Source: Eledone cirrhosa (taxonomy: Eukaryota). From it: DNA of 64,000 bases. The first letter of the stretch is position 1. Each line of letters begins with the position of its first letter. The notes under the pieces are model-generated. The model made no database searches. It was not told the DNA's origin and saw only the letters and a list, made by a program, of their open reading frames with translations. Below, piece by piece: positions 814 to 62,964 of this stretch. Location: positions 110,732,001-110,796,000 of the forward strand of contig OZ024742.1 of the NCBI GenBank assembly GCA_964016885.1. Reading direction: 5' to 3'. Both the position numbers and the translations under genes were made by a program.

Positions 814-1016
814 AGGAAAATGTTCAAGACCCCGACGGCTGAGCTCAAGCCGTTTCGATGGCTATTTCTACACGAAATAGCCGGCGAAATAGCTTGAGCT
901 CTGCCGTCGGGGTCTTGAACATTTTCCTATTACCCACTCTACTACCCTAAGCATTGAGTACTCTGGTGCGTTATGGTCCATGTGGTTCCTTACCACACTT
1001 CCTTCGTTATATCTAT
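814..1016. mobile_element. Mini fold-back PLE-type insertion (hairpin 814-928 plus right-hand tail)
   Basis: Imperfect palindrome AGGAAAATGTTCAAGACCCCGACGG...CCGTCGGGGTCTTGAACATTTTCCT between TA repeats. Contains the HHR 3' half GAAAC-GGCT..AGCC-GTC and is homologous to the element at 12185-12653. Confidence 0.7.
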
Positions 1017-1197
1017 ATGTATTTGTATTTTTATGTAATGTATATATATATATATATATACATATATATGTAGGAGGTGAGTTTTATTGTAGTACAATAA
1101 AGCAATGCAGATATCGGATAAGAAGCACTCTACAGTTTGTAGGACTGGAGTATACATAATATATAAGAACAAAAGATGGTTAAAGGAGTTCCATGTA

Positions 1198-1263
1198 TTT
1201 TATTATGCGCATTTCAAAAACAAATATCATCATCAATAATATTTGTGTTTTCATCAGATAAAA
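1198..1263 (-). ncRNA. Type I hammerhead ribozyme (minimal, palindromic loop 3)
   Basis: Minus strand TTTTAT-CTGATGA-[stem II]-GAAA-T-GCGC-A-TA-ATAAAA; stem I TTTTAT/ATAAAA. The mirror copy at 2840-2906 has G12 mutated. Confidence 0.85.
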
Positions 1264-1482
1264 CAGGAGGACATGATATGAAGGTTAAAAAACACTTGTG
1301 AATAGTTCAGTTTTAAATCAACATATGAGAAGTAGTTTTAGAGTTGTGTTTAGATTATTGATGTGTGCTATTGGGAAAAATATTTTATTTAGGGGGGGGG
1401 GGATGAAAAAAAAGAAGGAGATGAGAGTGAAGGTGGAGAGGAAGGTGGAGAGTGAAGGTGGAGAATGAATTGGTGTCAGTTA

Positions 1483-1832
1483 TAACTGACACCAATTCCT
1501 TCACCTATTTTGGCTCCACTTCCACCTCTTTTAAAGCTCGTCTTTATAACCATAATTCGTCTTTTAAATACAAACTTAAAAGAACCAACACGGCTCTCTC
1601 AGAACTCATATGGTCCTTGAAAGACAAAAACATTAAATATAGCATCTTTTGGAAGAAGGTTTCTTCTGCGTCACCATACTTGAACAGTTCTCTATCTAAA
1701 ATCTGCAATCTCTGTCTAAATGAAAAATTTACCATTATCTCTAATCTAGATTCTATAATAAATAGACGCACTGACTTGTTTTCTATCTGCTTGCATAAAT
1801 TCCATAAAACATTTCACAAAGTATACAGCTAA
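1483..1832 (+). pseudogene. PLE GIY-YIG endonuclease C-terminal fragment
   Basis: YFGSTSTSFKARLYNH...TALSELIWSLK...ASPY...CNLCLNEK...INRRTDLFSICLH; same motif series as the PLE at 25052-27964. Confidence 0.88.
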
Positions 1833-3380
1833 TATTCAATTCTTTATCAATTTAGAATCTTTTTCTCAAAGGCACATATATATACACTTCTTTTAAAAAT
1901 ATACCCATCTTTCTACCTTATTTCAAAGGTTATTATACATTCTATAATACTTGTTTACTCATTACTCTTACTCTATATCACCTTGTAAAAATCCTTCGTA
2001 AACATATACATTTATTTTTGACGCTAGATTATTCATCCTCAATTCATTATCTTTTCTCCCTATCATCTAACTCATTATTCTCAATACATATTAATATTTT
2101 CTTTTTCTTCGCACATATTATCAAATCCTTCAATATACAAGCCTTAACTTTACATTATTTTTCTTAAATCCTTCAATATACAAACCTTAACTTTACATTA
2201 TTTTTCTCTTCGTTAATTTTCAAATTCTATAATACTTGTTTACTCTTTCTACATCACCCATATTTATCACTTCCTTTTCTTCTCTTCTAATATCTAACCC
2301 CTAATCTGTACCTTTTCTCACTCTTGCCTAACATAGAATCAATTATTACATAATACAACACATTCTTACTCTATATCACCTTGTAAAAATCCTTCGTAAA
2401 CATATACATTTTTTTTTACGTTAGAATATTCATCCTCAATTCATTATACTTTTCTCCCTATCATCTAACTCATTATTCTCAATACATATTAACTCCTTCT
2501 TTTTCTTCGCACATATTTTTCTCTTCGTTAATTTTCAAATTCTTTTAATTTATACATTATCTTCCAACGGTTTTCAACCTCTCTATGTAAAACAATATAT
2601 CTTTCTCAGTTATAAAAACTATCTCTCTCTCTCTATCACCCATCTCTCCTCCTATCTCATCCTTCCTCACTATACTCCTCCCTCTCCACCTTCACTCTCA
2701 TCTCCTTCTTTTTTTCACCCCCCCCTCTAAATAAAATATTTTTCCCAATATCACACATCAATCTAAAACTACTTCTCACATGTTGATTTAAAACTGAACT
2801 ATCCACAAGTGTTTTTAACCTTCATATCATCTCCTCCTGTTTTATCTGATGAAAACACAAATATTATTGCATGATAATATTTGTTTTTAAAATGCGCATA
2901 ATAAAATACATGGAACTCCTTTAACCATCTTTTGTTCTTATATATATACATATATATATATACATATATATATATATATACATATTTTTCTTTCTCTCAA
3001 TAATGATATCTGCTACATTCTATACTCCCACAGAAAACATATATCTTCAATTTTATATCTAAACTTTCAACTAATTTAAAGAGATATATATTTTTTTCCT
3101 TTCTCCTTCGTATCGATTTTTTGTTCATTTTATTAGACTATTTTGCCTTTTACACCGAATATACTATTATACTAATACACTAATGTACTTTTAGACATTA
3201 GTGTACCCTATACAATAACGTACATTTATAGTGTGCGTTTATGTCATTGCTTATACACATAGATACATATATATATATATATATATATATATATATATAT
3301 ATATATATATATATATATATATATATATATATATATATATATATATATATATAAATATATATATAAATATATAAATATAA

Positions 3381-59708: not shown

Positions 59709-59873
59709 TTTACATTCACATGACCTCTACCGACCAATCAAAATTGTTTTGACCACAAGCATTTTTGCAACACAAAAATAACGCTGGAGCCACTTTTTTA
59801 ACATAAAAACAGGTAGAATTCCCAAAACTAATCAGATCAGAGCAAACAGCACGGACACTCTATCTCAAAATAA

Positions 59874-59910
59874 TTTTTGAAAAGCATTTAGAAATGCGCA
59901 ACCGGTAAAA
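59874..59910 (+). ncRNA. Non-canonical hammerhead-like motif (UUGAAAA / GCAA core)
   Basis: TTT-TTGAAAA-GCATTT-AG-AAATGC-GCAA-C-CG-G-TA-AAA; also at 56659-56695 (-), 56770-56806 (+) and 57095-57131 (-). Confidence 0.6.
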
Positions 59911-60154
59911 GCTTAAAAACTTAAAACCACAACTGAATACTAACCCATACAATCACTAATACTCTTTTATTCCTAATTAAACCATTTTTCAACTGTGAAC
60001 AATTTGTCAGCATTTTCTATTCCGTTTACCAATATATAATAACTTGTGTGTTACACCTCTATTCTTTTAACTATATATATATATATATATATATATATAT
60101 ATATATATATATATATATATATATATATATATATATATATATATATATATATAT

Positions 60155-62280
60155 GTAGATAAATCTACCAAAAGTTTACGGTAGTGTCCAATCAGTATGA
60201 AGAACTCAATGTAATCCGGATATCATGAAAAGAGAAGATGCATTCAAAAACTACTTTCGGTGAAAAATAAACGGAAGACAGAGTCAAGATAAATTAATAA
60301 AATAATGAATAAACAAAGAAACAGTTCCTTATATTAAAAAAATTCATCATTTTACGTTCGTTTCTAGGATATATATGTGTTAGAGTTGGTATGCATATTC
60401 TATAGATCTATGTACAATATTTATACAAACTATCAGAGAGAATATACATACCTACACATATATATGCTGTCTTCAGAAATAATGATATTTGTTTATTGAA
60501 AAAAACAAAGATTCAATACAATAGGTCTGTTTGGGAACAGGTTTTGAATTGACCAATAGAGAGATAGTGAGGGTCAGGATAGTAATATAGTAGTAGAAGA
60601 ACCTTAAATTATGGGTAGAGGAAGGTAGAATTCAGTTTTGGATGGAAAAGAATATTATGAATGAAGGATTATTTTAGGGAAGAAATAGGTCTTATGCTGA
60701 CCTCAGAAATAATTTTATTTTTTCAATTTTTCATTGAATAAAACCAACAAAGATCTAATATATTCTGTCTGTTTGGTAAGAGGTTTAGAATTAACCAATA
60801 GAAAGTTAATAATTGGCCAAATGGTAAAATAGTAGTAATTGAAGCTTATTTTAGGGGTGAAAATAGGTCAGGTGGTCAGTAAAAGGTATACAAGCAGTTG
60901 ATGTTATAAAATAGTAATGCCAATACAAATATCTAAGGTGACTAAAGTTTTAAGATAAGAATGTTAGTGAAAAAAATACATCTATGAAAAGAATATAAAT
61001 TAATTTAATTGATGGGTATATTTATATTGATAAAATTATACTAATACATATAGATATGATAAATAAGAGTTAGATGCAGTTGAAAAGTGCTGTTAAAGAT
61101 GAGGGGAAATTAAAAGAATATAAAAATAATATATATATATATATATATATATATATACTCATACATATATATTTATACATATATATACACATACAGACAT
61201 ATATATATATATATATATATATATACACTTATATATATATATATATATACATATATATACACATACACACACACACATACACACATATATATATATACAT
61301 ATACATATAAATACACATATATATATATATACATAGATATATACATGCATATATACATACATACACATACATATACACACATATATACACTTATATATAC
61401 ATATAATTATTGGGGGGGGGATTAAATTTATTAGTGAGAAATAGTAAATATATATAGTTTTCAAGGAACATAGAGTCATAACCTGAAGTTAAAGCATTAT
61501 ATATGTTTACTTAATGGTATCAGTTTTAGGAAATGATATTTGTAAGAAGGAAAGCAAAATTATGTAGTTCATCAGTAGTAGAATATTAATTATAGATTAA
61601 CTAAATTAAAAATAGTTTATATATTAATTTCAAAAGTGTATATTAATTAGGTTTATCATTTTTAAAGCAGAATTATGTAGTTCATCAGTAGTAGAATATT
61701 AATTATAGGTTAACTAAATTAAAAATAATTTATAAATTAATTTCTAAAGTGTATATTAATTAGGTTTATAATATTTAAAGGTTTTTCTCAGTTTATGATT
61801 ACACGATATTATTAATTCCTAAAGTACCAGTAATGCACTGGGTAATTGCTGGCCTTGCGCCTAAAGTAGAAACAATTATTAATTCCTGTCGCTTATTTAA
61901 TAGGATATCCTTAGATTTCATTATTTCAAAAAGTTCTTGGGAACATAATCTACATTCATTTCTACTATTTTGATAAGGGGTGGCCCTTTTGAGCACACTC
62001 CAGGTCAGGTCATATTCTATATTCCTCTTTCTATAACTATTTATTATTTCAGCTAGAGATGTTGTATTAGCTAGTGCGGCATTTTTAAAGCTATGTTTGT
62101 GGGTATTAAATCTTACCTTAAATTTGTTAGAGGTAGCTCCTATATATCAATAAATTGAGTCCTTAGTGAAAACTTTACATTTATATACTATGTTATTAAC
62201 AAGGCAATTTCCTTTTAATGGACAGTTTGCCTTGTTTCTACAGTTACAACTTTTCGTGAATATATATATATATCGTGAAT
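60155..62280 (-). mobile_element. Hydra-clade-like PLE family A 3' fragment with tail; SINE fragment inserted at ~61820-61881
   Basis: Endonuclease remnant ~61780-62260 ([27 protein letters not shown]); HHR 60344-60485; tail 60155-60288. Confidence 0.9.
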
Positions 62281-62406
62281 ATATATATATATATATATAT
62301 ATATATATATATATATATATATATATATATATATATATATATATATATACACACATATATATATATAGACACATATATATACACACACATATATATATAT
62401 ATATAT

Positions 62407-62964
62407 ATAAAATATTAAACAAATAATGAATAAAACAATGAAACAGTTCCTTATATTAAACAAAAAAAGTTCATTATTTAACGATCGTTTCTAGGATATA
62501 TATGTGTAAGAATTGGCATGCATATTCAACAGATCTATGTACAAAATTATACAAAATTATACAAACTATCAAGATTAAGTATACATACCAAACACACATA
62601 TATGCCGTCTTCAGAAATTATTTCTGAAGACGGCATATATGTGTGTTTGGTATGTATATTTAATCTTGATAGTTTGTATAATTTTGTATAATTTTGTACA
62701 TAGATCTGTTGAATATGCATGCCAATTCTAACACATATATATCCTAGAAACGATCGTTAAATAATGAACTTTTTTTGTTTAATATAAGGAACTGTTTCAT
62801 TGTTTTATTCATTATTTGTTTAATATTTTATCTTGACTCTGTATTCCGTTTATCTTTCACCGAAAGTGATTTTTCATTACATCTCTTCTTTCCATGATAT
62901 CCGGAATACATTGAGTTCTTCATACGGATTGGACACTACCGTAAACTCTTGGTAGATTTATCTA
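62407..62964. mobile_element. Family A fold-back (212-bp arms, 1-nt loop, 133-nt right tail)
   Basis: Arms 62407-62618 / 62620-62831; HHR 62618-62764 and its mirror; tail 62832-62964. Confidence 0.92.

Follow-up and report, generated by a model that had tools for sequence, protein, structure and literature searches.

One tailed and one tail-less end in two-armed Penelope-like insertions of Eledone cirrhosa

A stretch of 64,000 nucleotides (nt) from the genome of Eledone cirrhosa (assembly GCA_964016885.1, contig OZ024742.1, forward-strand positions 110,732,001 to 110,796,000, in our naming G000:C3:110732001-110796000 of the 3.0 Gb assembly), referred to here as the window, raises the question why Penelope-like retrotransposon insertions between (TA)n runs consist of two inverted arms of which usually only one carries a tail. 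The window is AT-rich (32% G+C), and after masking of microsatellites it contains many inverted pairs between (TA)n runs. In the following, the inner fixed site, at which tail-less arms end, is called I and the outer fixed site, at which tailed arms end, is called T. An earlier note on this DNA had suggested that both target strands prime the synthesis of complementary DNA (cDNA), and had predicted two fixed end points, one tail per two-armed insertion and a tail side that is independent of arm length. All three predictions agree with the counts given below. The observation is real and mostly as it was described, and the interpretation attached to it is partly supported.

In the window each arm was aligned against its partner arm, and three Penelope-like families, A, N and B, were sampled from the same genome. 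Exact motifs that sit inside the arm, picked without regard to the tail, occur at 9,885 (A), 8,192 (N) and 24,436 (B) places, and reversed controls at none. For each family the first 100 places were taken up, all on contig C1; from these the first 30 loci and further pairs among the 100 were analysed, together with 200 kb adjoining the window, and the pair counts are thus counts of sampled loci, mostly on this contig. Around unpaired motif matches extensions were made in 20 cases for A and in 14 for N and B, later unpaired ones being left out. A second set of 60 loci was selected by the tail-to-body junction of full-length copies, with the ends not considered, and a family-blind scan for inverted pairs covered 264 kb, in which some rows join the ends of separate insertions.

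Arm ends fall at I or T in 249 of 254 cases (A 41+40 of 86, N 46+41 of 87, B 39+42 of 81), and seven of the T arms are internal, with unique sequence following on the tail. At both outer junctions the element meets the target (TA)n at base precision, with at least 6 nt of pure TA in 85 and 84 of 92 flanks on the two sides, so that a target-site duplication would be hidden in the TA repeat. Two public runs of raw Illumina reads were compared with the family N reference: 769 and 805 reads leave it at the inner site into (TA)n, with a mean depth of ~550 and ~845 continuing into the tail, and 20 and 14 reads contain the strand-changing joint at the centre of a recurrent N hairpin. Since the tail-less end and the fold-back joint are both present in raw reads, neither of them is an assembly artefact.

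Among 101 facing pairs, 92 combine one I end with one T end, four are I+I, one is T+T and four have an atypical end. The share of I+T among the clean pairs (92/97; A 27/30, N 33/34, B 32/33) differs strongly from the 50% expected under independence (p = 4e-22), and an independent choice at the two ends is therefore ruled out. Two loci first called T+T had an internal T, and longer sequence shows that both end at I. In the set selected by the tail-to-body junction, 19 loci could be scored for both the inverted arm and the 3' end, and all 19 are I+T; 20 have a 3' end with no inverted arm found within ~3.9 kb, and the labels of the 21 unscored loci give 8 I+T, 2 atypical, no I+I and no T+T. The family-blind scan yielded 68 inverted pairs, 38 of them TA-bounded, of which 27 are staggered, 7 flush and 4 other.

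Such a rule could in principle be produced by sampling or survival, if the ends were independent and flush I+I and T+T palindromes were lost or misassembled, or if I+T hairpins were copied whole from few masters. Single-armed copies are indeed common and could include collapsed hairpins, and some hairpin junctions recur. However, I+T is also found in 30 of the 33 clean pairs with anchors more than 1.2 kb apart and in all 19 scored full-length copies, the junction positions are diverse, the recurrent hairpins exist as different sequence variants, in each of which the two arms match, the junctions are seen in raw reads, and the loci were picked by arm-internal motifs and not by the tail. This explanation is regarded as very improbable.

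The longer arm of the 92 I+T pairs ends at T in 28 cases and at I in 26, with 38 ties (p = 0.89), most of which are near-symmetric hairpins. These calls were automatic; one of them (L080) conflicts with the measured arm extents, and a few ties are unresolved long units. In four further units the partner arm is little more than the tail alone. A single fold-back with the tail always on the long arm is excluded by these numbers. In a broader form, a single primer would suffice if the cDNA folded back or the RNA primed itself and the endonuclease resolved the product by cutting at the inner site, whereby one end would lose its tail; this is close to suggestions made in PMC8557442 and PMC3846280. 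The 38 ties would fit, as would the short snap-backs and the templated filler at the junctions, and in Anolis the protein nicks a target from its own junction of open reading frame (ORF) and pseudo long terminal repeat (pLTR) at AT-rich sites (PMC11167929). However, 26 of 54 asymmetric pairs have I at the end of their longer arm, which in most of them is far under unit length and so holds no tail to copy. Where the tail is on the short arm two priming events are needed, because the long cDNA contains no tail to fold back on; pairing rule and arm lengths together thus rule out a simple fold-back for about half of the asymmetric units. The four units with little more than a tail as partner and the base-precise meeting of both outer junctions with (TA)n speak against one primer as well, and we consider it improbable.

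Where the two sites lie was read from full-length copies of A, N and B, in all of which the tail continues into the 5' untranslated region (UTR) and the ORF. Exact read-through junctions from tail to body number 439 in B, to which a short tandem array contributes some, and 100 in N. Both start sites are therefore internal and the tail end is not the end of the RNA, so that the proposal of the earlier note that one strand primes at the RNA end has to be dropped for all three families. Both sites lie within the repeat-to-ORF junction of a tandem unit, and at both the template offers a 2-8 nt AT match to the (TA)n primer. No common fold was found in 10 tails, whose folding z-scores lie between +0.6 and -2.3 when compared with mononucleotide shuffles. 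At G000:C1:132947037-132947570, 12 head-to-tail copies of the family B tail-to-body junction with 46 nt spacing form a small satellite built from the outer start site.

Paired arms are closer to each other than unpaired arms, with median differences of 1.5 versus 18 in A, 1 versus 4 in N and 3 versus 7 in B (permutation p of 5e-5 for A and N and 0.001 for B), although in some rows the difference is inflated because an arm does not span the whole stretch that was compared. Relative to other hairpins that share its junction, each arm of L168 falls ~54 nt short. Judged by sequence, the two arms of a pair stem from the same template variant.

The clearest trace of a template is found at G000:C1:2083744-2090015 (L132-L134), a full-length family B copy in which the 5' repeat and the inverted T arm are hypermutated from A to G on the sense strand. 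Dense patterns of this kind arise from adenosine deamination. Against a reference copy the inverted arm and the 5' repeat show 49 such changes each, at the same positions in aligned blocks, and they have a private insertion in common that is not in the 3' repeat; the latter has only 10 A>G changes and also differs from the 5' repeat at other sites. A 30-nt stretch of the pattern occurs exactly twice in the genome, at those two places. The simplest reading is that one hyper-edited RNA segment was copied twice, conversion between the neighbouring arms being a possible alternative, and the locus points to the upstream repeat as the source of T. When all arms were scanned for clusters of A>G changes, 13 stood out, two of them in this copy; the others may reflect flanking sequence.

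This copy bears on two alternatives. It could be a full cDNA that folded back and stopped at T, as one primer would allow. It also bears on dual priming on two RNAs, both usually from one source locus, in which an asymmetric complex would give T to one strand and I to the other, perhaps after pairing of the RNAs via the palindromic stem III of a hammerhead. Two RNAs would allow the same sequence to be copied twice without strand displacement, and an RNA switch would explain why the 5' and 3' repeats are unlike elsewhere too. In addition, dual priming is a named model for L1 (PMC2837659), the arms hold hammerhead-like motifs with a palindromic stem III, and such motifs have been proposed to act as dimers (PMC4209133). 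However, equal RNAs give no natural reason for 95% I+T, and an apparently molecule-specific A>G pattern stands in both the inverted arm and the 5' repeat. Two RNAs are therefore judged unlikely, though less so than a single primer.

The inner junctions, where the two arms meet, could be scored in 72 cases, 46 without and 26 with filler. Overlaps of at least 2 nt are present in 29 of the filler-free junctions and of at least 4 nt in 14, while random joins would give 17% and 3%; the filler sometimes consists of repeated copies of the nearby end. Overlaps and filler fit the joining of two cDNA 3' ends. At the hairpin centres of L051 and L002 the templated filler is repeated, in a manner that resembles either recurring slippage or theta-type end joining.

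Each family has an inner hot spot at which many terminal arms stop (A 27/68, N 31/68, B 8/66), and this leads to symmetric hairpins. A capped RNA 5' end at this point was considered, and in about five family A arms a C is found there where the template gives G. However, none of the internal 5' repeats ends at the hot spot (0/20 in N, 0/40 in B), so that a stall soon after initiation explains it equally well. The family A hot spot falls on the 5' side of stem I in a hammerhead-like motif, which is present in the window at 11471 (+), 10835 (-), 62624 (+) and 60476 (-), with a stem I of 7-10 bp, a palindromic stem III and a stem II of 105-116 nt. Arms that stop at the hammerhead cut site were not seen: the predicted family A cut lies ~72 nt from I, and the hot spot ~140 nt further in. 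By pattern, a hammerhead-like core with stems is present in A, B and three other repeats of the window, and none was found in family N. The family A motif is missed by a short-spacer pattern and, in the loci tested, by Rfam at gathering score; no Rfam hammerhead reached this score in 7 loci, and there was none among the 150 matches listed of 179 weak ones in the window. Matches to Rfam microRNA models fall on palindromes and microsatellites, all listed ones being below gathering score.

Taken together, the reading that we prefer, with a probability of roughly 0.6, is that target-primed reverse transcription is paired and uses a single RNA, on which one strand starts at I and the other at T. 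Both strands of the (TA)n target would be nicked, and each would prime reverse transcription on the same RNA at a different fixed site. A two-subunit complex may hold both target ends and one RNA, so that each site would be used once. The two cDNAs would be joined by their 3' ends via short microhomology or templated filler, and each would then serve as template for the second strand of the other. If one primer failed, an ordinary single-armed and 5'-truncated insertion would arise from either site. Double nick, dimer, single RNA and joining step are thereby what the insertion products suggest.

Several points weigh against this reading. The evidence consists entirely of end products, and paired arms could resemble each other because of later conversion, or because one source locus was active in bursts. 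Of the five clean pairs that break the rule, three look like true exceptions (L088 and L097, both I+I, and L186, T+T); the ends of L007 are variant, and L064 is probably a nested insertion. Single-armed insertions make up ~29 of 79 units (~37%; A 13/38, N 10/22, B 6/19) and start at T in 12 cases, at I in 16 and elsewhere in one. The rule thus covers two-armed insertions only, and the earlier claim that both flanks join 3' ends of the element holds for these and fails for the single-armed units. Their share, a hand tally over fully followed intervals, is probably underestimated, since pairs get two sampling chances. Six junctions with a 4-nt overlap are one recurrent hairpin. In 19 full-length units the inverted arm sides with the 5' repeat at 39 sites and with the 3' repeat at 45, so that the hypermutation signal is a single case, and a T arm that always copies the upstream repeat has no general support; three earlier units were uninformative. 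Finally, the main text of PMC11167929 reports no strand difference in start site in bulk, which neither shows nor excludes pairing per molecule, and no homology between template and target, whereas the AT match described above was found here at both sites.

In its furthest form, which we put forward tentatively and at somewhat less than even odds, the paired reaction would be obligate: a dimer would cut both strands of the TA repeat and bring the ends to a pair of dedicated start sites on one tandem RNA, as no other retroelement class is known to do, and A>G-hypermutated templates, likely a product of RNA editing, would record which RNA segment was copied into each arm. If this is true, a single reaction accounts for the inverted repeats, for the tail on one side only and for the copies with a single arm.

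The assignment of the three families follows from their coding regions. Family N matches Pfam RVT_1 (0.2 bits under the cut-off) and GIY-YIG, family B has a weak RVT_1 match and a reverse transcriptase (RT) 31% identical to that of N, and for family A, which has no Pfam match, the RT resembles that of N (E 5e-7) and the YIG motif is covered by a weak alignment. All three appear to have the order of endonuclease-containing (EN+) Penelope-like elements, an RT followed by a C-terminal GIY-YIG endonuclease, and in full-length copies of each the tail is the start of the next unit, which is the partial tandem (pLTR) arrangement. The 830-residue frame of family A shows by eye the DKT motif, a CxCX5C linker, CxxC and CxH near the end and no CCHH, with (TA)n as target; the RWK motif of the Hydra clade appears as RWR. 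By this motif set family A would belong to the Hydra clade, which is described as generally <3 kb, while family A units measure 6599 and 7035 nt with a long repeat-rich 3' region. Families N and B have a CX2-5CxxC linker before GIY-YIG and the CCHH motif, and are by motif set of the Neptune/Nematis type, Neptune being the label of the earlier note. A family A insertion of ~14.5 kb at G000:C1:30188241-30202700 (L060/L191) combines an inverted T arm of ~2 kb with a partial copy of 5.6 kb upstream and a full copy; the latter ends at I and holds an open frame of 830 residues. Full-length N (L162, L107) and B (L132-L133) have two overlapping frames instead of one ORF, at the same place in both N copies; a programmed frameshift, an intron or decay may underlie this.

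In the window itself, staggered fold-backs between (TA)n runs are found at nearly all places named in the earlier note; the family A copy at 60155 lacks an inverted arm, and the old fold-back at 9448..10460 has flush ends and is a counter-example or unscorable. Tails range from 34 to 134 nt. For family A a tail of ~133 nt had been given. It measures 134 nt (10496-10629) in the near-perfect Hydra-type hairpin at 10496..11676, which contains the cores at 10835 (-) and 11471 (+), and 131 nt (27834-27964) on the long coding arm of 25052..27964 (+), the short inverted arm of which (25052-25202) ends at I. It is also present at ~62831-62964 in the hairpin 62407..62964 (+), whose centre near 62619 lies in stem I of the hammerhead-like motif, on its 5' strand. 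The remaining copy, 60155..62260 (-), is single-armed, with the tail at 60155 and a truncated 5' end joined directly to (TA)n near 62260.

The family N tail, previously put at 38 nt, is present at both 56958 and 60072 and is 34 nt long, or 38 if an ambiguous TATA is counted. It belongs to a short hairpin at 56537..56958 (+; tail ~56925-56958) and to the two-armed insertion 56964..60072 (-), in which the long coding arm, with a 519-residue frame for RT and GIY-YIG at 58167-59726 (-), ends at I and the short inverted arm 59709-60072 carries the tail (60039-60072). Family B is represented by 21130..22182 (+), with a short inverted arm at I and a long coding arm with a tail of 54 nt (22129-22182). 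Alignment confirmed that the tail may sit on the long coding arm, as at 22182 and 27964, or on the short inverted arm, as at 60072 and in the two-armed insertion 1071..2945 (+), whose tail occupies 1071-1158 (88 nt) and which has a hammerhead-like core near 1257 (-).

Tails end at or near the other named positions 14912, 22182, 49308 and 50859; the end at 40605 is uncertain, and position 1016 lies ~8 nt inside the TA flank. They correspond to a short tandem unit with inverted arm at 13512..14907 (+; internal repeat plus tail ~14096-14264, terminal tail 14831-14907, 77 nt), a hairpin at 48824..49308 (+; tail 49223-49308, 86 nt; hammerhead-like cores at 48923 (-) and 49123 (+)), a fold-back at 50859..51612 (-) with a tail of 108 nt (50862-50969) on the left arm, a fold-back at 39374..40640 (+) with a one-sided extension of 93-128 nt from 40513 (end at 40605-40640), and a short fold-back at 814..1008 (+), in which arm alignment places the I end at the left and the tail (~929-1008, 80 nt) at the right. 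The tandem unit at 13512-14907 is ~650 nt long, obeys the one-tail rule and may be a non-autonomous rider. The ends at 54355 and 56400 both lack a tail and belong to subfamilies that are ~72% alike; they are probably two separate insertions.

Other repeats of the window were noted in passing. A LINE-like (long interspersed nuclear element) stretch beside a TA run at 19138-20241 (+) contains a 367-residue frame with an RVT_1 match, and a second one, read by eye, lies at ~15014-16520 (+), also beside a TA run, and recurs in diverged form near 35501-36186. A further abundant repeat, likewise next to TA runs, occupies 3383-4059 and 8573-8996, with a hammerhead-like core at 3674 (-); related rows of the 264-kb scan look flush, not staggered. 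The element at 29354-30241 has terminal inverted repeats of 103 nt, a broken transposase-like frame and no TA-run boundary, and is presumably mariner-like by eye; it is unrelated to the Penelope finding.

Part of this picture is already in print. Inverted copies, (TA)n targets and tails that may sit at either end and are often restricted to one have been described for EN+ Penelope-like elements (PMC8557442, Craig et al. 2021; PMC3846280, Arkhipova et al. 2013), a 34-bp repeat at the ORF start in PMC2377424 and the hammerheads of such elements in PMC4209133, and priming on both strands and two internal start sites are likewise known (PMC11167929). The accessible parts of bioRxiv 10.64898/2026.07.22.740005 and PMC12910113 hold nothing further on tails. 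Neither a one-I-one-T rule nor a paired-priming model for these elements was found in the titles and abstract openings searched, with most subscription papers, older key papers and the supplementary figures of PMC11167929 outside the search. As far as searched, the counted pairing rule, the long tails (to 134 nt) and the hypermutation tracer are new. The origin of the inverted arms and of the one-sided tail is named as an open question in PMC8557442, and a 95% one-of-each rule, independent of arm length and common to divergent clades, narrows the models sharply. It is directly checkable in the published in vitro system, and for annotators it means that such palindromes are retrotransposon products with two fixed boundaries and not miniatures of DNA transposons.

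Compared with known systems, the EN+ Penelope-like elements of PMC8557442 and PMC3846280 are described, in words, with a tail of 30-40 bp that is ascribed to endonuclease resolution or self-priming, whereas here the tails measure 34-134 nt and the pairing was counted, with ~95% one tail independent of arm length. From reported Hydra elements (<3 kb) family A differs by its 6.6-7 kb and by the stem II of 105-116 nt in its hammerhead-like motif. There is also a likeness with the Poseidon element of Anolis (PAc) in vitro (Frangieh et al. 2024, PMC11167929), where both strands are nicked and extended, a hammerhead lies upstream, a dimer is predicted and, as here, two internal start sites bound the tail; however, it is a bulk assay with no pairing per molecule, and the main text does not model how inverted arms arise. 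Both target strands likewise prime in L1 twin and dual priming (Meyer et al. 2010, PMC2837659; also bioRxiv 10.1101/2024.12.14.628481), the cDNAs stand head to head and the outer junctions are the primed ends. However, L1 primes at the poly(A) end and at an internal site that anneals to the overhang, resulting in an inversion with internal deletion (PMC2837659). This hallmark of non-overlapping arms is absent here, in line with the contrast to L1 twin priming drawn in the earlier note: both sites are fixed and internal, the arms duplicate one sequence, and ~60% of the insertions are two-armed.

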